Virus record (IMG/VR): IMGVR_UViG_3300028800_000059
Coordinates: 113,319 to 177,318 of that record
Length of the DNA: 64,000 nt
Source: a virus
Reading direction: 5' to 3' (one strand)
Shown piece after piece: positions 2,994-12,858 of the stretch. The notes beneath the pieces are model-generated. The model saw only the letters and a list, made by a program, of their open reading frames with translations, did no database searches and was not told where the DNA came from. The first letter of the stretch is position 1, and each line of letters starts with the position of its first letter. The translations under genes and the position numbers were made by a program.

Positions 2994-3097
2994 AACAGTT
3001 TCTAGTTGATTTTATTGTATGGGCCTGGCCCGTCATGCCTCGGCGCTTTCGCCTGTGGGCTTTCCTAAATGATGATATGGACGAATTGAAGGACTAA
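2990..3097 (+). CDS. small hypothetical protein, 35 aa (MKQFLVDFIVWAWPVMPRRFRLWAFLNDDMDELKD), not in the ORF track
   Basis: ATGA start/stop overlap with the upstream gene; its TAA overlaps the convergent methyltransferase stop. Confidence 0.5.
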   Translation: MKQFLVDFIVWAWPVMPRRFRLWAFLNDDMDELKD

Positions 3098-4695
3098 GGT
3101 TTGTAGAACACAAACACTGGCTCATATTTTCGATACAATCCATTCACGCGACAAATATTTTTCGTTGTCGCCTTAATATCCCCATTTTCATCGGTCACTA
3201 ATCTATTCCCTCCCGGCATTTGGCTCATAGCCATTTTCTCCACGCCGCGATATTCCATGCCTAGATCGGTAAGTATATTGATAGAGTCCTGTTCGAGTGG
3301 CAGGCGCTCCCCGGAGAAAACCACATCTGCAATATTCCACAAGAGATATCTATCGTTCCGGAGCCAATGGAATGCCGTCCAGAGTGTAGGTTCCAAAAAG
3401 CCTTTTTTCCAGGCATCATATTGTCCAAATTTTTTATAGGATTGTCCTTCATCTTCTGAATAAGCCTCCTTCGAAAAATATGGTGGGCTAGTGAACACCA
3501 TATCCACTTTCCCTTTCCACTTCTGGAAGTTTTTGTCCTGAGCAATTTCCTCAGACCCTAACTGATAAATTTCATAGGAATTCAGATGGGGAAAAAGTGA
3601 CGAGCCCTTATTAGTTTTATCATTAAAAAAATCAGCCAATTCGTGATATTTCGTCCGGCCGCCCACAGTATCATGATCCCGATTAGGATCAGTACCGATA
3701 TAATGAATGTTCCGATCATCGATAGAAAGAGCGCCAAGAAGACGGCCACCCCAACCAGCAGAAGGGTCATATAAAACCACTGTCTCATTGTTTTTGCAAT
3801 GCTCCGTATATTTTCCATAGAGATATTTAGCCGTTAGTGGAGGGAAGTTAGTCGCATACTGACAATACGACACGCGAAACGCCTTCAGACCAATTGGGAA
3901 AAGTTTTTGGCCGTGTTTGAAGACTCGGATATTGTATGTCTTATGTTTGCTGCCCGCCACATTAGTCAGAGCCTTGGCTGGAATAATATTCTGTAAAACA
4001 AACAAATCAGCCTCATTCAAAAAGAAATTTTTTCGATCTTTGAGTTCCTGATTATATCCTGTGTATGTTGCTGCCTCTTCCTTGGGCGCAATCCAATAGT
4101 CCCATTCTCCATGGGCACGATATTTTTTCTCGAATGTTTGAATCCAATCCTGGGCGTCCCTGGTGCAAGGAAGAAATTCGACACTTTCTTTATCCATAAC
4201 CTTAGCAGGATTTGAATAGGCATAAAAAGAATCTCGCTTAAAATGCCGCGATGCATAGGTTACGAAGGTGTCTAGGAGGATTGGGTCGGCAAAGTAATCA
4301 TAGATAGATCGCCCGGCATCAGGGTCTTTCGTGTAGTTAATACGAGTTTTCATCATGGTTGGAAAGAAACCATTGATTACGCCCGACATTTCAGACTGTG
4401 TGTTGTGAATGATATCGTTGTTGCCAGTCAGTTCATCCTTGACCACGAATTCATTGACTGGATAACCAATCATATGGTTCATAAGATCGATCATGGTTTC
4501 TTCGGACTTGCCTACAACAGGTGGCGTGCCCAACTTGTCCCAGGCATACACGACCACTTCCCGCAGTTCGACACACCACTGGCGAAATTCGTCTTTGGAC
4601 ATCCATAGGACCTGTTCAAAGGTCTTGTTGACCTCGTGATTTAACAGATAGGTATTTTTCTCATAGAAAAATTTATTCGCCATCAAGGGTTCCAT
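3094..4695 (-). CDS. DNA amino-methyltransferase (m4C/m6A type) with a large N-terminal region
   Basis: SAM-binding motif I YDPSAGWGGRLLG and catalytic motif IV FTSPPYF. Confidence 0.85.
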   Translation of the reverse strand: MEPLMANKFFYEKNTYLLNHEVNKTFEQVLWMSKDEFRQWCVELREVVVYAWDKLGTPPVVGKSEETMIDLMNHMIGYPVNEFVVKDELTGNNDIIHNTQSEMSGVINGFFPTMMKTRINYTKDPDAGRSIYDYFADPILLDTFVTYASRHFKRDSFYAYSNPAKVMDKESVEFLPCTRDAQDWIQTFEKKYRAHGEWDYWIAPKEEAATYTGYNQELKDRKNFFLNEADLFVLQNIIPAKALTNVAGSKHKTYNIRVFKHGQKLFPIGLKAFRVSYCQYATNFPPLTAKYLYGKYTEHCKNNETVVLYDPSAGWGGRLLGALSIDDRNIHYIGTDPNRDHDTVGGRTKYHELADFFNDKTNKGSSLFPHLNSYEIYQLGSEEIAQDKNFQKWKGKVDMVFTSPPYFSKEAYSEDEGQSYKKFGQYDAWKKGFLEPTLWTAFHWLRNDRYLLWNIADVVFSGERLPLEQDSINILTDLGMEYRGVEKMAMSQMPGGNRLVTDENGDIKATTKNICRVNGLYRKYEPVFVFYKP

Positions 4696-5077
4696 ATTCT
4701 CTTTCTAATCGTTCTAATGAATCTTGAAGTTTAGCATAGGCCTTTGGTGCTGTCAAATCCATTTTGGAAAGACCTGTACCAACACCATCAGTAGGAATAA
4801 TAACGGTCTGTCCAAGTTTTAAATGTAATTCAATTTGTTTAATGGGAAATATTATTTGATCCCAAAATTTATCAATTTGTGAATCCATAAAAAATGATTC
4901 GACAGTTCTTTCAGGTTTCCATTTGGTTGGAATTCCTATGGCATTTGGCTCGCCGCGCATTTCTTTTGCCTGACCACCCAGACCTCGACGCTGCATATTA
5001 TCTCCAAACACATAAATTGTTTTGGGATTATCCTGTAGATTTTTTCTTGTAATCCATTTTTGATGTTTGATTGGCAT
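4673..5077 (-). CDS. conserved phage protein (FGDN…GxGGQA…NAIGIPTK family, possibly macro-like fold)
   Basis: YVFGDNMQRRGLGGQAKEMRGEPNAIGIPTK motif; fold assignment is from memory only. Confidence 0.6.
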   Translation of the reverse strand: MPIKHQKWITRKNLQDNPKTIYVFGDNMQRRGLGGQAKEMRGEPNAIGIPTKWKPERTVESFFMDSQIDKFWDQIIFPIKQIELHLKLGQTVIIPTDGVGTGLSKMDLTAPKAYAKLQDSLERLEREYGTLDGE

Positions 5078-5851
5078 TTAAGCACCTACATTCCAAAATA
5101 ACGCACCACTTGATGCATACGCCTTTACAAAACTCCAAGCCTTGGCATCATACGTAGGTGCCGAAGGAAACGGAGGAATATCATCGCCTTTCACAGGGCG
5201 ATCAAATTTATATGGCGACACCCAAAGCTTGGCTCGTCCAATCTGTTCCGGTTTCATCTTATGCCCAACCTGCACCACGTTGAAATTTGCGTTAGGCCAG
5301 GCCAATTGCAGACCACGAGAAAGAGTTCCACTTGATCCTACTGTCCAAACCTCTTTGGGTTTGATATCGATTGCCTGCGCGACCTTCACAATGGCTTGTA
5401 GAATAACAGGGTGTTCCAACCCAAGCGGAAGTACCATTCGTCTAGTAGGCTCCACGATGGCATATTCTCTGGCGCGGGCCTGAGTCACATTCAACATACC
5501 ATCAGGAACCCAATGATATTCAGCACCCAAAGCAATTCCTTTTTTCTGATAATCCGTATAATTTTCTGGGTCTCGTTTCGCCATGAAAAGAATAGTTCGT
5601 TTTCCATATTTCGAACAGGCTGCCGGCAAAGATATTTGGGCATATCCTGTTGCTGGACACGACCCAAAGACCCATTTATCAATTTTTGGATAGGCATTAA
5701 TCAGCGCATCAAGGAAACGAATCTTTGATCCGTATCCAAGTTTATCGTCACGCACTACGTTGATATAACGATCATGATCAATCGCAGTGGGTTCCACGTA
5801 AGGTTTAGGATATGGATCGTTCCACTTACTTATGTCGAATTGCATCTTCAA
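5078..5851 (-). CDS. PLP-dependent enzyme, fold type II (ACC deaminase/D-cysteine desulfhydrase/TrpB-like)
   Basis: VVRDD…GSKIR (candidate Schiff-base Lys), glycine loop TVGSSGTLSRG, YDAKAW, terminal LFWNVG; start probably at the ATG at 5845. Confidence 0.8.
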   Translation of the reverse strand: MKMQFDISKWNDPYPKPYVEPTAIDHDRYINVVRDDKLGYGSKIRFLDALINAYPKIDKWVFGSCPATGYAQISLPAACSKYGKRTILFMAKRDPENYTDYQKKGIALGAEYHWVPDGMLNVTQARAREYAIVEPTRRMVLPLGLEHPVILQAIVKVAQAIDIKPKEVWTVGSSGTLSRGLQLAWPNANFNVVQVGHKMKPEQIGRAKLWVSPYKFDRPVKGDDIPPFPSAPTYDAKAWSFVKAYASSGALFWNVGA

Positions 5852-5984
5852 TATCCTCTAGGCGTCGGTGAATTTTTTCAGTTTCCATAAGTAATCTGAC
5901 CAACATATGGGGAGTTCCCATCAAATCCTGTTCGGCCAGTTTATTAAACTGTCTCAGAGTAAGTTTTAATTCTTCACTCGGCAT
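5826..5984 (-). CDS. small hypothetical protein, 52 aa (MPSEELKLTLRQFNKLAEQ…), not in the ORF track
   Basis: open frame filling the gap between the 2OG-oxygenase and PLP genes and overlapping both. Confidence 0.5.
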   Translation of the reverse strand: MPSEELKLTLRQFNKLAEQDLMGTPHMLVRLLMETEKIHRRLEDIEDAIRHK

Positions 5985-7203
5985 TTTCCATCCTTTGTAT
6001 TAATTCAGGAGTCAACACAATGTCCACGACCAAATGAATACGATCCTCGGTTCCATTATTGATAGCGCGATGTGGCTTGCGAATATCCAGATACCAACAT
6101 TCGCCTTCTTTCATATTGACAGTGGTTGCCTTGCCATCAAAATCCCAGGACGTAAATTCAACACCAGGATTCGTCACAAGAGGGAAATGAAAACGCGCAA
6201 GTTTTCCAGGTGTCGCACCAAGATCAGGATCAACTTGATCGGTATGTCTTTCAAGTTCTCCGCCACCAGGCTTTAGTTTCATTAAGCGAATGCGATGCAC
6301 GTTGGTATAATCATCCTGTCCCAAAGATTTGAGAATAGGTTTTACGTGTTCCTCAAAGAAAGGCATGATGTAAGTATTTTGGATGAAGAATTTTTCGTTC
6401 TTATGTTTCTCTTGCCACTTGGCATTCATTTCAATTGGTTTTTCAATGAAATTATAATCATTCTTATATCCACGAAGTGCCAGGGCACTCCAGGACCGTT
6501 CCTTGTTGTAATTGGAATAATGATCGGTGTAACTAATATCGAATCTGCGGCCATCAGGAAGTTGATTGGTAATATGTAATCCAAAATCTTTAATTGCCTT
6601 CCAATTGGCGGCACGAAACAAAACTCGTTTGACTCCAGTTTTTTCTAGTGGACTCAAAACAGGATGTTTACGGGGTTCCCAGGTTCCAGGCAAAGCGTAG
6701 ATAGACGCCGGCATAGAATCTTCGCGGAAATAAATTCCCATGATCGATCCATAGGTGTCTATTTTCCCGCCAATATATTTGTAACCAATGGACAACAACA
6801 TTTCATGTTTGGCTTGATCTTCACGCCAAGAATAAACCCAGGACGTTCCATAGGTAATCATAAACCAATTTTTGAACATTGCATTTGAACAGGCGATGTG
6901 AGAATACACATTGTCGCCAGGCTCTTTATGGCCGATCACAACATCATCATAGGCAACGATATTGCCTTTAACCTTGACTCTTTTGACGCGCCAGATGGGT
7001 GTGTCTATACAACCTGTTTCATTAGAAAGTTTCAAATCCCCTTTTGATAAATCTTCGGCTATGCGATTTTTCTTATATTCAGCAAAGGGATTGCCACAGG
7101 CATACTTGTTATATTCGGCATAATGAGCCTCGATGGATTTTAGATAATCCAGGTCATATCCATGTTGCCATGGTTTAGTTTGTGCTGATAATGGTCCTGT
7201 CAT
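5974..7203 (-). CDS. fusion of a putative GNAT-like N-domain and an Asp/Asn beta-hydroxylase-type 2OG-Fe(II) dioxygenase
   Basis: C-terminal RIRLMKLKPGG…RHTD (HxD)…RFHFPLVTN…GECWYLDIRKPHRAIN…RIHLVVD; N-domain WVYSW…IGYKYIG resembles a GNAT C-terminal motif (weaker call). Confidence 0.75.
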   Translation of the reverse strand: MTGPLSAQTKPWQHGYDLDYLKSIEAHYAEYNKYACGNPFAEYKKNRIAEDLSKGDLKLSNETGCIDTPIWRVKRVKVKGNIVAYDDVVIGHKEPGDNVYSHIACSNAMFKNWFMITYGTSWVYSWREDQAKHEMLLSIGYKYIGGKIDTYGSIMGIYFREDSMPASIYALPGTWEPRKHPVLSPLEKTGVKRVLFRAANWKAIKDFGLHITNQLPDGRRFDISYTDHYSNYNKERSWSALALRGYKNDYNFIEKPIEMNAKWQEKHKNEKFFIQNTYIMPFFEEHVKPILKSLGQDDYTNVHRIRLMKLKPGGGELERHTDQVDPDLGATPGKLARFHFPLVTNPGVEFTSWDFDGKATTVNMKEGECWYLDIRKPHRAINNGTEDRIHLVVDIVLTPELIQRMENAE

Positions 7204-7826
7204 GTCGTCTTTATTGTAAGAGTTGATTTCTTATCGGCGGCTTCTAGTTTTTTCATAGCCTTCACTTTTCGCATGATTTTCTTCATGGTCTTGCGACGTT
7301 TTTCTTGTTTGATTTTCAGACTCAATGCCGGCACTCTTTCGGTAAACAAAATGCCATTGCAATGATCAACCTCATGTTGAATCAAACGAGCCGTCAGGCC
7401 CGAGAAACGTCCTTTCAGCCATACGCCTTTTTCATTCTGCCAAATAGCATCTATCTCTTTGGCGCGTTGCACGTTTAAAAACAACATAGGATAACTCAAA
7501 CATCCCTCACTGTCAAGGAGTTTTTCTTCGCTGGAAACAACAATTTCTGGATTGAAAAATGCCTGGTGCTGTTCATCGGTGCCGACAACAAAAACTTTGA
7601 CAGGAACTCCTACCTGGATTGCCGAAAGACCCAATCCCTTATAGTGTCGCATAGTCTGATAGAGCCGATGCACCAATTCTCCTGGATGCATCTGAGGATT
7701 ATTGAAATTGAAGTCCTCTGGTACAGTTCTCAAAATTGGATTGTTTTCATCGACTAAATTGAAAAGCGTCAGCGTCTTGGTTTGATCCTGTGATCCGGTA
7801 TCTATGCGGAGAAATTCTTCACTCAT
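7200..7826 (-). CDS. def: peptide deformylase
   Basis: motifs GLGLSAIQVG, EGCLS, QHEVDH; start placed at MSEEFL (7826) after AAGGA. Confidence 0.95.
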   Translation of the reverse strand: MSEEFLRIDTGSQDQTKTLTLFNLVDENNPILRTVPEDFNFNNPQMHPGELVHRLYQTMRHYKGLGLSAIQVGVPVKVFVVGTDEQHQAFFNPEIVVSSEEKLLDSEGCLSYPMLFLNVQRAKEIDAIWQNEKGVWLKGRFSGLTARLIQHEVDHCNGILFTERVPALSLKIKQEKRRKTMKKIMRKVKAMKKLEAADKKSTLTIKTT

Positions 7827-7830
7827 TTTT

Positions 7831-7980
7831 TTAAGTTCCTTTAACCCATTCAGAATATGTCGTGGCATTACCTGCTAAAATTTCCTTATCAAATTCTTCT
7901 TGTAAAATTTCGTAGAGCGTTTTTTCCAAATCTAACACTGATTCTGAAATCTCACCCAACCAAAAATAATATGGCCACAT
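7831..7980 (-). CDS. small hypothetical protein, 49 aa (MWPYYFWLGEISES…), not in the ORF track
   Basis: ATG 2 nt after the gp46 stop; open frame ends 4 nt before def. Confidence 0.45.
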   Translation of the reverse strand: MWPYYFWLGEISESVLDLEKTLYEILQEEFDKEILAGNATTYSEWVKGT

Positions 7981-7982
7981 TT

Positions 7983-9707
7983 TTACACCTTTGTCATTTG
8001 AGAAAATTCATTTTTCGTTTCGAATTTAATAGCCGATCTAAATTTATCAAACAGAATATCCGTATGATGACTGATGATGAAAATATTCACTTCTTCACCA
8101 AATTTTTGAATGATTTTCAAAAGCGCATCCGTGCCTTCCGGGTCCAGAGATGAATCAAAAACTTCATCCATAATCAATAGATTCGTTGACACTGAATTTT
8201 TCAATTTGGCAATTGCTCGCCATGTGAACAAAAGAGCCAGATCAATGCGTTGTTTCTGTCCTTCTGAAAAACTTTCGTAAGTAAAATCGTCGCGGTGGCG
8301 ACTCTTGATTTTTTCATTGAAATTTTCATCCAGCGTGAAATTAGCATAGAAATCCATGTCATCCAGATATTTGTTGACCAACTTATTGATCACTGGAATA
8401 TATTGCTTGATGATTTTTGTCTTCGGCCCATCATCCGACAAAAGATCAACCATGGCCTCATGATAGGAACGCTCATATATCATTTCAGTTCTATCAGCAT
8501 CCAAGGCAGTTAAATCCTTGATGGCATCATCTAATTGAGTTTGATAATCCTGGCCAGTGACAGGAGAGGCCCCTTTTAGGACACTGTTTTCATCTTGGAG
8601 TTTTTTGATATATTTTTCAATGGAATTGATTTGTTCATCAATCTTAGCCACTGATTTTTCATATTGAAGAATTTCACTCAAAACCTTGGCAATTTCAGAT
8701 CGGCGTTGTGTAAATTTGCCTAGATCGCTTTTAAGTTTGTCTCGACCTACTTCATATTTGTTCAACTTAATTTTTAAATCTTGGGTTGATTCCATTTTCT
8801 TGATGGGTGGAATTTCCTGTAAACAAGTCGGGCAGTTATCATTGTCTCGATAAAATTTCAATTGTTCTTTGTAAGTTTCAATGTTGTGGTCAAATTTTCC
8901 ACGATACCCTAACATGGCCTCAATTTTGTCGCTGTTTTCTTTTTGATCCAATATCGAATCTTTTAGAATTTTTATGTTATCAAGTTTGATTTGGCGATTA
9001 TCAGCCAGGGCAGCGGCTTCGATATCGTGCTTATCAATTTCTTCCTGGTTCTTATCGATCTTGGATTGATTGGAGATTTTCATATCCGCCAAATGCTGTT
9101 TCAGTAGACGAATTTTTTCATCCAAGAAACTCTTGGCCTTGCTATTATTTTCCAGAAGTTCTTTCAGAGCAATCAACTTCTGTTTGACCAACAAATTCAT
9201 TGGCGCAAAAATTTGAATGTCCAAAATATCTTCAATGATGCCACGGCGTGCGCCAGTCGTCAATCTCATAAATGCCGAGGCGCCTTTGGCCGAACCAAGA
9301 ATGACAATTTGATCGAAAGTCTTCTTCGACATTTTCAAGATAGACTTTTCCAGGTAATCTTGATAATCGCCTATCTTTGCATCTTGTTTGACAAGCACCC
9401 CGTTTTTCCAAATCTCAAAAACAGCAGGCTTCAATCCTCGAATGATTTTGTATTTGTTAGTGCCAATGGAAAATTCCAACTCAACCACTAGTTCTTTTTG
9501 GTTGATCGAATTGATTAGCTGTGGCAGATTGATATTACGGAAAGGCTTCTTCCATAGAGCAAAATCAATGGCGTCTAAAATTTGTGATTTGCCATGCCCA
9601 TTCTTTCCAACAATCAGAGTCGTGGAACTCTTATCCAAAACAATTTCAGTAAATGAATTGCCTGTGTTTAGGAGATTTTTCCACCGTACCACATGAAATT
9701 TTATCAT
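7983..9707 (-). CDS. gp46: recombination endonuclease ATPase subunit (Rad50/SbcC-like)
   Basis: Walker A GKNGHGKS, zinc hook CPTC, signature FSEGQKQRIDLALLF, Walker B LLIMDEVFDSSLD. Confidence 0.97.
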   Translation of the reverse strand: MIKFHVVRWKNLLNTGNSFTEIVLDKSSTTLIVGKNGHGKSQILDAIDFALWKKPFRNINLPQLINSINQKELVVELEFSIGTNKYKIIRGLKPAVFEIWKNGVLVKQDAKIGDYQDYLEKSILKMSKKTFDQIVILGSAKGASAFMRLTTGARRGIIEDILDIQIFAPMNLLVKQKLIALKELLENNSKAKSFLDEKIRLLKQHLADMKISNQSKIDKNQEEIDKHDIEAAALADNRQIKLDNIKILKDSILDQKENSDKIEAMLGYRGKFDHNIETYKEQLKFYRDNDNCPTCLQEIPPIKKMESTQDLKIKLNKYEVGRDKLKSDLGKFTQRRSEIAKVLSEILQYEKSVAKIDEQINSIEKYIKKLQDENSVLKGASPVTGQDYQTQLDDAIKDLTALDADRTEMIYERSYHEAMVDLLSDDGPKTKIIKQYIPVINKLVNKYLDDMDFYANFTLDENFNEKIKSRHRDDFTYESFSEGQKQRIDLALLFTWRAIAKLKNSVSTNLLIMDEVFDSSLDPEGTDALLKIIQKFGEEVNIFIISHHTDILFDKFRSAIKFETKNEFSQMTKV

Positions 9708-10798
9708 TATGCCGACTCCAATGCCAAGGCATCCGAATGAATTTTACGCATCAGAGATTTTAGTTTCTGTGGGTCTAATTCCGTCGGACAAGTTGCGTCA
9801 ATGGTTTCTTCCAATATTGTAACAATGTCTGATGATTTTTCGATCCCTTCTGTGGTGACTGAACCAGATGAATTTGAAGAAGGAGAATTATCAATATATT
9901 TTTCAACGATTGAAACATCGGCAACTCCAGCCTTGTATAGTGAATCTAAAAACACATCAAACCAATCGGGATGTTCCTTTTCGACAACCACAATTTTTAC
10001 GTAACAATTTTTAGTATAAGAAAAATCCAACTTATTCAAATTTTCCAATGTCTCTTTTCTGTCGTCATATACAATTTTGTGGAACATTCGATAGGGATTT
10101 TTGATGAACTGTAAATCCAATGTGTCGGTATCCAATACATGAAAGCCACGTGGATCATTCCAATCAGCCCAAGTAATCTCATAGGGATTTCCTAGATATG
10201 TGACAAGGCCATCCGTGGATCGATGATGAAAATGTCCACTTAGTACCATATCGAATTTATCAAACCATTTTCTTGGAGTAATTCCAGTGTGACAAAAATT
10301 TCCTTTGTCCATTTCGAAACCAGCTATTTCCAAATGTCCCATTACCAATCGCGCATCAGTTTCACGCAATAGCTTTTCAGTTTCTCCAATGTTTGTAGGA
10401 TTAACCCAAGGCAGCAAGATTGTTTTACGCCCATCCAGGTCTATCTCAACCGGGTCTGGATAAATTTTAACATTGGAATATTCAACGAAAATATCCTCAA
10501 TGGCATTAGGCGTATTGAATGTTTTCAAAGGACAGTCATGATTGCCTGGAATGTAGATACAATCCACTTCCATTTGTTTAAGTGGATTGCCAAATCTCTT
10601 GTGAATGGTATCCAAAATCTGGAGATTTATGAATTTGCGATGCTCGACAAAATCACCAAGGCAAGCCATTTGCTTTATGTTGTGATCCTTTAAGTAGGGA
10701 AAAAACACATTCTCATAAAACTTGAAAAAGAATTCATTGAAAATTGGCGAAGCCTGGCGCGCTCCAAAATGAAGATCGGTTATAATTGGAAGAAGCAT
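9707..10798 (-). CDS. gp47: recombination endonuclease nuclease subunit (Mre11/SbcD-like)
   Basis: TDLHFG, GDFV, GNHD, GHLE, SGHFH phosphoesterase motifs; adjacent to gp46. Confidence 0.97.
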   Translation of the reverse strand: MLLPIITDLHFGARQASPIFNEFFFKFYENVFFPYLKDHNIKQMACLGDFVEHRKFINLQILDTIHKRFGNPLKQMEVDCIYIPGNHDCPLKTFNTPNAIEDIFVEYSNVKIYPDPVEIDLDGRKTILLPWVNPTNIGETEKLLRETDARLVMGHLEIAGFEMDKGNFCHTGITPRKWFDKFDMVLSGHFHHRSTDGLVTYLGNPYEITWADWNDPRGFHVLDTDTLDLQFIKNPYRMFHKIVYDDRKETLENLNKLDFSYTKNCYVKIVVVEKEHPDWFDVFLDSLYKAGVADVSIVEKYIDNSPSSNSSGSVTTEGIEKSSDIVTILEETIDATCPTELDPQKLKSLMRKIHSDALALESA

Positions 10799-11181
10799 TA
10801 TTTCGCATCCATGAGATATTTAATACCAGATTTCAATAGCATTACACTATCCTTAAACATACCCAATGCCACATTACAATTATTGCAAAGAAATCCTCGA
10901 ACCTTATTTGTGACGTGATCGTGATCGATGACCAAATCACTATCGGTTTTGCATATGGCACATAGATTATTTTGCCCCGTCAATATTTCTGCATAGGTAT
11001 CAGGCGTCAATCCGTATCTGTATTTGATTTTATTCGTCCAATTTCTTTCCTTGATACAAGAAAAACATTTTCTAGTTTTTATGTCTCGTTTTGTTAATCC
11101 ACAATGACCACATGGGAGTCCATGGTAATATTTGGCGCCGCGGTTCTGCGCTTTTTGTAAATTACTTAATCTCTTTCGCAT
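10798..11181 (-). CDS. endonuclease VII-family HNH nuclease, probably a free-standing homing endonuclease
   Basis: CAIC…IDHDH…VRGFLCNNCN; N-terminal Cys cluster CGHC…CFSC. Confidence 0.8.
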   Translation of the reverse strand: MRKRLSNLQKAQNRGAKYYHGLPCGHCGLTKRDIKTRKCFSCIKERNWTNKIKYRYGLTPDTYAEILTGQNNLCAICKTDSDLVIDHDHVTNKVRGFLCNNCNVALGMFKDSVMLLKSGIKYLMDAK

Positions 11182-11250
11182 TTAACGAGAAGTGCCCTAT
11201 TACACTCAATACACGATATTCCACAAAAAATCATGTGAAATTTCAATGTC

Positions 11251-11496
11251 CTATCGACGGCTTTTTCGTTTTTCTTCTTTTCGTTGCGCTATTCTATATC
11301 CTGATGTAGAAGGTCCCTTATGATCCACTTTATCGTTGAACTCTCTTAGGTACTGATTTTGCGCCTTACCGATTTCATTCATGATATCAGTCAATTGGGA
11401 ATCGTAATTGTCACGCTGTTCAAACGGAATAGATTTGTCACGCAACTTTTCGATTAGATACATAATCTGGGTAGGCAGAAGAATATGCTTAGTCAT
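11251..11496 (-). CDS. hypothetical protein
   Basis: 81-aa ORF with GGAG upstream, between gp55 and gp47. Confidence 0.65.
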   Translation of the reverse strand: MTKHILLPTQIMYLIEKLRDKSIPFEQRDNYDSQLTDIMNEIGKAQNQYLREFNDKVDHKGPSTSGYRIAQRKEEKRKSRR

Positions 11497-11541
11497 TGTT
11501 TTTACTCCTTGTCTTATTATAGCGGACGCAACTAAAAATGT

Positions 11542-12156
11542 CTATCGCTTTTTCTTGTCCTTCTTTTTGGCTGCCTTTAACTTAATCACCGCAGCCTCTA
11601 ATTTTTTGGCCTTGCGTGCCTCTTCGTTTTTCTCATATACCGAAATGAATTCGGATATGTTGTCGTACACTTGTTTTGGTTTCATTCCATAATCTGCTAT
11701 GGTAGAATCATTTTCTAATCCAGATATATCATCCATGACGCCAGAATTGATTGCTGACTTATATTTCACATACATCTGTTTCTTTTCGCGCATGACACGC
11801 CGAATTGCGGCATAGTAAATGATCTGGGTGAAATAGGCAAAAGCATCGCCCTTCTTTGGATTGTAGTTGTGCCAATACATCAGACAATTTTCGACTCCAT
11901 CATGCACCATGTCCTGTTTATATTCAGGTGTATAGTCATAAAAATTAGGAGCCTTCATTAGGCCCCATCCAATCTTGGTCCATACTTGACAAAGATAATT
12001 TGGTATTGGAGGAACAGGCAACTTTTCTCGTTTAGCCTTTCGACATGCCTTCTGATAATCGATCAGAGTTTTTTCTAATACTGCCTTGTCTACATAATCT
12101 TCCTTTTTGCTTTTTCTCGGTGTCTTTGGTTTTTTTGGTGTAAAATTAACTTCCAT
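11542..12156 (-). CDS. gp55: late-transcription sigma factor
   Basis: YVDK…IPNY…PNFYDYT…DMVHDGVENCLMYWHNYNP…AFAYFTQIIYYAAIRRVMREKKQ. Confidence 0.95.
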   Translation of the reverse strand: MEVNFTPKKPKTPRKSKKEDYVDKAVLEKTLIDYQKACRKAKREKLPVPPIPNYLCQVWTKIGWGLMKAPNFYDYTPEYKQDMVHDGVENCLMYWHNYNPKKGDAFAYFTQIIYYAAIRRVMREKKQMYVKYKSAINSGVMDDISGLENDSTIADYGMKPKQVYDNISEFISVYEKNEEARKAKKLEAAVIKLKAAKKKDKKKR

Positions 12157-12165
12157 CTTTTTTGA

Positions 12166-12193
12166 TTGACAACTCCGGGTTTTAGGATATAAT
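12166..12193 (+). promoter_or_regulatory. sigma70-type promoter oriented antisense to the local genes
   Basis: TTGACA (12166-12171), 16-nt spacer, TATAAT (12188-12193). Confidence 0.6.
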
Positions 12194-12237
12194 AAAGGAC
12201 CCCTTTAGACCTCCGTTATATTCCCCTGTAGGGTTTC

Positions 12238-12858
12238 TTAGTTCTTAGGCTTATCTTTGAGAGATTCGAAATGAGCATTGAAGTCTTCAAGAGAAACAAC
12301 ATTATTAGAAGCCTTGATTTCAACAATCTTTCCTTTCTCAGCATGAAGGGCCTTTTCTCTCACAAAATCCTCTTTCAGCTTATTAAATTCCTCTGATGTT
12401 GAATAATAGGCATTAGTCAATTCCTTAGAAGCCTTCTGCCATCCAAGAATGTGTGTTCCGTTGACTGGAAAATATTCACCATCATCAACTAAAACATCAA
12501 ATCTCCACCTAGTCAGAACAGGAACAATCCTGTCATCCGAAGTCATTACATAATTGATCTTCATTGGATTCTTGAACCAATAAAATTCTCCACTCTGTGG
12601 ACAGTCTGTAGGATCAATTTCTGAGGTCTGGTTTGCGAAAATAGACTTTTCTACCTTGCTCACATTACAAATGACATCATCATGTGTAATCAATCTAGTG
12701 AAAAAAAGAGTTTCGTGAACTGGTTCTTGTGGAACTTGTTGTTCTGGTAGCGAAGCAATAACTTCGGTTACCTTCTTATTCAATTCCTCTCGGGTCATGA
12801 AAGGAATCACATTATCATCAACTAAATCGTCTGTTACTGGCAGATTATCATCAAACAT
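12238..12858 (-). CDS. hypothetical protein at the conserved uvsW-gp55 position
   Basis: start moved to MFDDNLP because AAGGAGG precedes it; synteny with T4-like phages. Confidence 0.7.
   Translation of the reverse strand: MFDDNLPVTDDLVDDNVIPFMTREELNKKVTEVIASLPEQQVPQEPVHETLFFTRLITHDDVICNVSKVEKSIFANQTSEIDPTDCPQSGEFYWFKNPMKINYVMTSDDRIVPVLTRWRFDVLVDDGEYFPVNGTHILGWQKASKELTNAYYSTSEEFNKLKEDFVREKALHAEKGKIVEIKASNNVVSLEDFNAHFESLKDKPKN

Follow-up and report, generated by a model that had tools for sequence, protein, structure and literature searches.

Gp52 of Pseudomonas phage M6 and gp226 of Salmonella phage ViI are, to our knowledge, the sole enzymes known to trim amino acids attached to DNA, and the amino-acid-type DNA hypermodifications known to us all begin from 5-hydroxymethyl-pyrimidines made in the nucleotide pool. 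Work on purified M6 gp52 established it as a pyridoxal phosphate (PLP) enzyme whose substrate for decarboxylation is C-alpha-glycinyl-thymidine in DNA (Lee et al., NAR 2021, PMC8989533). Residue K36 of gp52 is the aldimine lysine, and ViI gp226 decarboxylates O-serinyl-thymidine in DNA (PMC8989533). In thymidine hypermodification of the M6, ViI, and PaMx11 type, a dUMP hydroxymethylase, a 5-hydroxymethyl-deoxyuridine (5-hmdU) DNA kinase, and an amino-acid:DNA transferase (AADT) provide the substrate, whereas the PaMx11 gp48 acetyltransferase and the M6 gp53 radical S-adenosylmethionine (SAM) enzyme are optional tailoring around this constant entry step (PMC8989533). Phage Mu Mom, an enzyme with the GCN5-related N-acetyltransferase (GNAT) fold, moves glycine from Gly-tRNA to N6-adenine in DNA (PMC13219725). 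Here, a locus of a T4-like phage is analyzed in which a relative of gp52 is encoded together with an SPPY-motif enzyme of the amino-methyltransferase fold (MTase) and a fusion of a GNAT-fold domain with a 2-oxoglutarate (2OG)-Fe(II) oxygenase domain (HYD). The whole stretch analyzed, named the window, is 64,000 nucleotides (nt) long and covers positions 113,319–177,318 of the 177,318-bp virus record IMGVR_UViG_3300028800_000059, a genome with 41.6% GC estimated by CheckV to be ~98% complete. We consider it an even chance that the three proteins constitute a functionally coupled, undescribed DNA base modification module. Such a module would most likely install and tailor a larger-than-methyl group on a base of the phage’s own DNA after replication.

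The catalytic motifs are intact in all three proteins, and those named below were confirmed by translation. The PLP gene (5078–5851, minus strand) encodes 257 aa from a TTG start or 255 aa from the ATG at 5845. Judged by profile homology, its product is a fold-type-II enzyme and a homologue of the M6 gp52 decarboxylase acting on DNA-linked amino acids. It matches phrog_7093 with an E-value of 1.6e-31 over profile positions 18–279 of 279, and gp52 matches the same profile at 2.2e-159. Alignment of the PLP family profile to gp52 with hhalign gave a probability of 97.6% (E 3.9e-12, 227 columns, full length), although the identity to gp52 is only ~22–25%. The predicted Schiff-base residue Lys43 (5723–5725, minus strand, within the GSK motif at 5723–5731) is invariant in three alignments of 25, 40, and 10 sequences and aligns with gp52 K36. 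The C-terminal signature PFP..YD.KAW..FWN(V/I)G is also common to the family and gp52. A glycine-rich SSGT loop (5324–5335, minus strand), with S173 and G175 invariant and S174 almost invariant, is the predicted PLP-phosphate site, which we take from general knowledge of fold-type-II enzymes. Because PHROG 7093 and the aligned lysine are shared with gp52, the enzyme can be placed among the relatives of the on-DNA amino-acid-trimming enzymes; on these features it is not a generic metabolic enzyme resembling 1-aminocyclopropane-1-carboxylate (ACC) deaminase. The homology also makes a DNA-linked amino acid the default assumption for its substrate. The preliminary description of the window, made from the sequence alone, had this step as deamination or elimination, but decarboxylation is likelier given the characterized relative.

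PLP relatives are numerous: when 1.8 billion representative proteins were searched with the profile, 1623 representative clusters were found. Several of them score above the cut-off of 35 bits for Pfam PALP, such as those of Erythrobacter phage R6L (40.6 bits), Microcystis phage Mae-JY30 (46.3 bits), and P0465 (46.2 bits); the enzyme of the window itself reaches 16.4 bits (E 0.006). The search of PDB sequences with the PLP profile returned marginal candidates only, the best being a Rossmann segment of an O-methyltransferase (E 0.0054), with cysteine synthases at E 0.4–0.9. For the genome scan, the 10-sequence alignment was used, the 40-sequence one being too diverse, and 16 loci were obtained. 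In the IMG/VR contigs L005 and L004 of ~56 kb (6923–11800), a 311-aa family member stands directly before MazG-like PRA-PH, kinase-like, thymidylate-synthase-like, and dCMP deaminase genes. There is no MTase of the window type nearby, the neighbors of the L005 gene (a 380-aa protein) show no likeness to the MTase or HYD of the window, and the region looks like a nucleotide-pool-based hypermodification cluster with unassigned neighbors of 380, 334, and 286 aa.

Proteins in which the three families are fused indicate that they work together. Among 35 long PLP-family proteins, 15 carry an N6_N4_Mtase match, nine YunG, and three Asp_Arg_Hydrox, while 25 of the 35 match PALP at E <= 0.001. When the architectures were read with profiles of the window’s own MTase and HYD families, two triple fusions of MTase, GNAT/2OG, and PLP parts were recognized, P0365 (1081 aa) and P0375 (1138 aa). 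The whole of HYD is contained in both, and also in P0364, which consists of HYD, YunG, and PLP parts; P0366, P0371, P0376, and P0418 join the MTase to the PLP domain. What the fusions share with the MTase is the catalytic domain (profile positions 273–524). Motif I DPCAGWGGR and TSPPY, corresponding to the motifs in the window, were found in P0365, P0366, P0371, P0375, and P0376, and two of these exceed the N6_N4_Mtase cut-off of 26.7 bits (P0365 with 26.8, P0371 with 28.1). Erythrobacter phage R6L gp1 and no fewer than six representative clusters have a nested architecture, with the PLP domain inserted into the MTase after motif I and before a (S/T)CPPY motif IV. As separate genes, an MTase followed by a PLP enzyme was seen in Microcystis phage Mae-JY30 and in contigs of Giesbergeria, Acidovorax, Leptolyngbyaceae, and Actinomycetota. 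Within the fusions, the domains are ordered MTase-HYD-PLP, whereas the genes in the window follow the order HYD-PLP-MTase; the fusions are thus not a read-through of the window arrangement, and they make chance adjacency unlikely. DNA hypermodification, as the preliminary description had suggested, is therefore still the best reading of the locus, given the homology to gp52 and the fusion of the three domains elsewhere.

Some further observations concern these fusions. P0365 is one uninterrupted open reading frame (ORF) in L092, an 18-kb bacterial metagenome contig, where (5859–12483) its flanks hold unannotated genes of 224, 397, 140, and 264 aa. Also close by, next to glmS, are a PemK toxin and two serine recombinases. 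This locus looks like an integrated element and might pair modification with a restriction or defense function. The YunG domain (PF24585), seen in nine of the 35 long proteins including P0363, P0364, P0391, and P0438, is located between the GNAT/2OG and PLP parts in P0364 and may be a further component of the module. Pfam gave no confirmation of an N-terminal ParB domain in R6L gp1 (best match ddrB-ParB, E 0.52), which was accordingly not used as evidence for a DNA target. When the catalytic domain of the MTase was modeled together with the PLP enzyme, the complex scored 0.00, which gives no verdict and no weight either way.

The MTase gene (3094–4695, minus strand) encodes 533 aa, or 529 aa from an alternative ATG at 4683. 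The catalytic domain (3097–3849, minus strand, residues 283–533) contains the SAM-binding motif I DPSAGWGGR (3742–3768, minus strand), with D310, P311, S312, G314, G317, and R318 invariant, followed by the catalytic motif IV SPPY (3478–3489, minus strand) inside FTSPPYF, which is invariant in 28 of 28 family members; the order of motif I then IV is gamma-like. The class I Rossmann fold, motif I, and motif IV are common to this enzyme and the N4-cytosine/N6-adenine DNA amino-methyltransferases of the (S/D/N)PPY class. The match to Pfam N6_N4_Mtase itself is at 1.2e-4 and 22.6 bits; most homologues, however, carry a precomputed PF01555 match above the cut-off. Family members match the DNA-methylase families N6_N4_Mtase and Eco57I, and weakly Alw26I-type and CcrM. 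More than 2200 full-length homologues at 45–65% identity were found, and there are 584 matches in IMG/VR. In comparison with the AlphaFold2 (AF2) model (mean predicted local distance difference test, pLDDT, 83), the nearest solved folds were aTrm11 (5e72, Z 15.8, root mean square deviation, rmsd, 3.1, 181 aligned) and TrmN (3tma, Z 15.2; VIA-align), with Trm14 also among the best. These are tRNA N2-methylguanosine (m2G) enzymes with Z 15.8–14.4, and generic class I methyltransferases follow at Z 13–14. Three properties distinguish the window MTase from the known amino-methyltransferases: a conserved N-terminal domain of 280 residues, a motif order that differs from the beta-class Pfam N6_N4_Mtase model, and the recurrent fusion to, or interruption by, a PLP enzyme. 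The N-terminal domain (3850–4695, minus strand, residues 1–282) is strongly conserved, with many near-invariant columns. It gave no informative fold match, the ESM Atlas returning only unnamed viral clusters <0.9, and it has no match in the fusion proteins or in cultured phages; by this distribution, the domain is specific to the T4-like family. Outside the window, at genome positions 77,790–78,812 on the minus strand, the phage encodes another amino-methyltransferase, a canonical N6_N4 DNA enzyme that matches the full profile with 114 bits; no further DNA-modification gene was found in the genome.

HYD (5974–7203, minus strand, 409 aa) has at least 498 full-length homologues, and its AF2 model reaches a pLDDT of 87. 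The 2OG-Fe(II) oxygenase domain (6004–6654, minus strand, residues 184–400) matches Pfam Asp_Arg_Hydrox at 5.6e-13 (49.5 bits, cut-off 22.6) and carries the predicted ligands H320-x-D322 (the HTD motif at 6238–6246), H378, and R388. H320, D322, H378, R388, and H390 are invariant in the family. The best folds by VIA-align were the nucleoside-antibiotic hydroxylase 7v4p (Z 15.2), Pro cis-4-hydroxylase 4p7x (Z 15.0), and AspH (5apa, 8re5; Z 14.2), as against only Z 9.8–10.2 for AlkB and NgTET1. In fold, the domain is thus nearer to amino-acid and peptide hydroxylases than to AlkB/TET, which fits action on an amino-acid-like side chain. With these hydroxylases it shares the double-stranded beta-helix fold, HxD...H, and the basic 2OG ligand at Z 14–15; it differs from them in an identity of 13–19%, in the N-terminal GNAT-fold domain, and in the viral setting linked to an MTase and a PLP enzyme. 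Stand-alone 2OG oxygenases (~150–170 aa, 30–34% identical to the HYD C-terminal domain) replace the GNAT-fused form between gp46 and the MTase in L018, L022, L025, L027, and L003:943-1449. For the N-terminal domain (6709–7155, minus strand, residues 17–165), the label “GNAT-like” from the preliminary description was borne out at the level of the fold (2pc1 Z 11.2, rmsd 3.5, 141 aligned; 2fia Z 10.1; 3f5b Z 9.3; VIA-align) but not beyond it. The conserved acetyl-CoA loop Q/RxxGxG/A was not found, no column in residues 98–120 is conserved at >=80%, and Pfam gave no acetyltransferase match; the proposed acylation is accordingly left unsupported. Like Mu Mom, the domain combines a GNAT fold with no classical acetyltransferase behavior in the setting of phage DNA modification. 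It shows no sequence likeness to Mom (hhalign probability 1.9%), is fused to a 2OG oxygenase, and is missing from many MTase-PLP pairs.

The next question is how a relative of gp52 might obtain its substrate in this phage. Searches of the whole genome gave no match to Thymidylat_synt (PF00303) or ThyX (PF02511), for which the controls were found in 10 and 5 reference genomes, respectively. There was also no match to HMUDK or ADDT (PF18723, PF18724), the ADDT control matching no reference genome, so that this absence is weak, and none to Tet_JBP, an absence that is weak for the same reason; TGT/DpdA, C5-methyltransferase, and AdoMet_dc were not detected either. By tblastn, the M6 pathway proteins identified the PLP gene only, with nothing for gp51 and short chance-level matches for gp54 (E >= 0.04). 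The expectation that the chemistry differs from the thymidine pathways, originally based on a window without a visible 5-hydroxymethyl-uracil kinase or AADT, therefore holds genome-wide: no thymidylate-synthase family member, ThyX, AADT, or HMUDK was found. As no known entry enzyme was found in the genome, the PLP enzyme cannot be fed by a known route. In M6 and ViI, its substrate is made from 5-hmdU by the DNA kinase and the AADT; here, the partner of the PLP enzyme is an enzyme of the amino-methyltransferase fold. The two systems have in common optional tailoring around a constant step and the fusion of pathway enzymes in metagenomes (PMC8989533). They differ in the entry enzyme and also in the tailoring enzyme, a GNAT-fold and 2OG fusion not reported in PMC8989533.

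A scheme can be proposed in which the SPPY enzyme is the entry enzyme and acts on an exocyclic amine (N4-cytosine or N6-adenine type). It would supply, or work beside, a substrate bearing a free alpha-amino acid. In analogy to M6 gp52, the PLP enzyme would then remove the carboxylate so that a cationic amine remains. Hydroxylation of the side chain would fall to the 2OG domain, and the GNAT-fold domain would perhaps bind, cap, or acylate it. This proposed sequence mirrors the combinatorial tailoring of thymidine hypermodification. One specific version of it, which we consider unlikely, assumes that the MTase does not methylate the exocyclic amine of a DNA base but loads it with the 3-amino-3-carboxypropyl end of SAM, that the PLP enzyme decarboxylates the product to a cationic aminopropyl group, and that the GNAT/2OG protein hydroxylates or caps this group. 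Aminocarboxypropyl transfer would create a substrate of the type that the PLP enzyme requires, and it would account for phages with the MTase only, which would then carry an aminocarboxypropyl base.

Several observations weigh against a coupled module, and most of them come from related loci. Eighty such loci were sampled, found with the MTase alignment as a query, and the counts refer to the 60 that hold both gp46 and the MTase. In all of these 60 the MTase is downstream of gp47-gp46. The genes between gp46 and the MTase include both HYD and PLP in 16 loci, PLP only in 12, HYD only in four, and neither in 28; in a set of 59, the PLP gene is missing from 31. The raw association of HYD with PLP is strong (odds ratio 9.3, p 3e-4). 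However, on the MTase tree the PLP state changes at least 10 times and the HYD state at least eight times, and phylogenetic pairing left 2–4 pairs changing in the same direction and 0 in the opposite one (p 0.25–0.5, not significant). No column of the MTase separates partnered from unpartnered enzymes, motifs I and IV being the same in both, and in one PLP-positive and PLP-negative pair (L058 and L053) the MTases differ at 31 residues only. The missing partner-tracking residue implies that the MTase probably acts alike in all loci; this single chemistry could be plain methylation. Other points of the same kind are the scores of the phage’s own PLP and MTase proteins below the curated Pfam cut-offs, the GNAT-fold domain with neither an acetyl-CoA loop nor likeness to Mom, and the tRNA m2G methyltransferases as the nearest MTase folds, if by only ~1–2 Z units. 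On the basis of the sampled synteny, the MTase is the syntenic core gene and constant anchor, with PLP and HYD as optional tailoring genes. The unit is in this respect modular, and the claim of an obligate unit has to be given up, since the MTase stands without either partner in nearly half of the loci and PLP and HYD have been gained and lost repeatedly.

In the main rival explanation, the MTase makes N4-methylcytosine or N6-methyladenine (m4C/m6A) for the protection of phage DNA, while the PLP and GNAT/2OG proteins act either on free amino acids or on the amino-acid end of SAM or S-adenosylhomocysteine (SAH), e.g., to clear an inhibitory product or to change the cofactor. An MTase that often stands alone, an unchanged core in which no residue tracks the partner, and an SPPY motif and motif I canonical for amino-methyltransferases all agree with plain methylation. 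A helper role around the cofactor is made plausible by the nested fusions, in which a PLP domain between motifs I and IV would sit beside the methionine moiety of SAM, and by the chemistry of SAM and SAH, which are amino acids tethered through the side chain to a nucleoside, like the gp52 substrate. Yet polymeric DNA is the substrate of the one PLP-family member that has been characterized (PMC8989533), the presence of a GNAT/2OG partner resembling amino-acid hydroxylases in the same fusions is left unexplained, and the literature search found no precedent. We therefore hold this explanation to be possible, if on the doubtful side. The fold comparison leaves an RNA target for the MTase as an alternative, which may be extended to a module modifying tRNA, rRNA, or protein, e.g., with an acp-like (aminocarboxypropyl-like) or hydroxylated side chain on a phage tRNA. 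Besides the tRNA enzymes among the best folds, one fusion with a weak match to Methyltransf_15 (cap guanine-N2) points in this direction, and a 2OG domain resembling protein and amino-acid hydroxylases would suit an RNA or a protein target. The lead of the tRNA enzymes over generic class I methyltransferases is slight, though, and the family members match DNA-methylase families. The known substrate of the PLP homologue is DNA, and the genes are in a DNA recombination block, with the PLP gene of L005 among genes of deoxynucleoside monophosphate (dNMP) metabolism. Taken together, modification of RNA or protein seems quite unlikely.

It might also be argued that the genes are neighbors by chance, the unrelated def, HYD, PLP, DUF7831, and orf52 genes being cargo of a hypervariable site between gp46 and the MTase. 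The interval between these two indeed spans 17 nt to 5.2 kb with all combinations of def, HYD, and PLP inside, and the MTase is within 20 nt of gp46 in two loci with neither partner. The peptide deformylase gene def, found in part of the related loci only, is facultative cargo of this interval; gains and losses are frequent, and DUF7831 and orf52 are at this site unique to this phage. An explanation by chance would, however, have to account for independent fusions of the same three families in a different order, including the one on a bacterial contig beside serine recombinases, and for MTase-PLP pairs that recur in unrelated phages and bacteria. We consider it very improbable. The coupled module, in which the three proteins would act on DNA, is thus retained as the preferred reading, in its modular form.

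The preliminary description was correct that five overlapping or abutting minus-strand genes lie downstream of gp47, gp46, and def; all five ORFs were verified at their coordinates. The ATG of HYD shares 4 nt with the def stop, and its end overlaps by 11 nt with orf52 (5826–5984, minus strand, 52 aa), which in turn overlaps the PLP gene. The gene for the DUF7831 protein (4673–5077, minus strand, 134 aa) abuts the PLP gene with zero gap and is overlapped by the MTase gene by 11–23 nt, depending on the start. Scans for promoters and terminators gave no signals above shuffled expectation, and the label “operon” hence relies on gene overlap alone. A pathway of five genes was not upheld. The DUF7831 and orf52 genes are present in 0 of the 80 related loci, which reduces the module to three genes, and by this criterion of conservation the two are local cargo outside it. 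The DUF7831 protein matches its Pfam family at 5.9e-43 and PDB sequences not meaningfully; the domain is common in phages and elsewhere fused to DUF4326 or YAcAr/SLOG. For orf52, Pfam, PHROG-type, and NCBIfam searches gave no family match; it is unsupported as a member of the module and is possibly no gene.

The MTase, PLP, and HYD genes are situated in the block of DNA replication and recombination genes. Upstream on the minus strand are, in order, a gp55-like factor, an HNH endonuclease, and the recombination nuclease genes gp47 (9707–10798, Metallophos match) and gp46 (7983–9707, SMC_N/AAA_23 matches), followed by def (7200–7868, Pep_deformylase 1.7e-36), all on the minus strand. The analogy to the DNA glucosyltransferase of T4, drawn in the preliminary description, applies in part: a-gt adjoins gene 47, but on the side facing gene 55 and thus at the opposite end of the 46/47 pair. 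In the window, a 127-aa HNH-type endonuclease gene (10798–11181, minus strand) is located between the gp55-like gene (11542–12156) and gp47, which is approximately the place of a-gt and of the homing endonuclease mobB in T4. On the other flank of the MTase, a plus-strand island interrupts the otherwise minus-strand genome with ORFs at 214–2502, 2508–2750, and 2766–2993. The first encodes a 762-aa phrog_459 “peptidase” (2.4e-182) with an acidic low-complexity middle, and the others 80 and 75 aa. In more than 30 related loci, the homologue of the 762-aa gene follows the MTase on the same strand, whereas it is convergent here, and the cassette therefore seems to be inverted in this phage.

No match of the region to GenBank phages was found by megablast, tblastn with the HYD, PLP, and MTase proteins identified no cultured T4-like phage with full-length homologues, and NCBIfam contained no family for any of the five proteins. 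A literature search with partial coverage returned no description of an MTase-PLP fusion module, of phage aminocarboxypropyl or aminopropyl DNA modification, or of DUF7831. The locus thus presents a relative of a proven on-DNA decarboxylase wired to an MTase-fold enzyme and a GNAT/2OG fusion, with no known entry enzyme, in an arrangement found in very abundant uncultured aquatic T4-like phages, in siphoviruses, and in bacterial contigs. Should the MTase merely methylate, the fusions would remain as a sign that a PLP enzyme and a SAM-dependent one are coupled in an unknown way. If the aminocarboxypropyl version of the scheme were true, thousands of aquatic T4-like phages would reach an amino-acid-type DNA hypermodification by a route that is fed by SAM and needs no kinase. 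If the three proteins act together on DNA, they would represent a new biosynthetic logic for modified bases, which would bear on the evasion of restriction and CRISPR, on how viral DNA from the environment is sequenced, and on enzyme tools for attaching amines to DNA.

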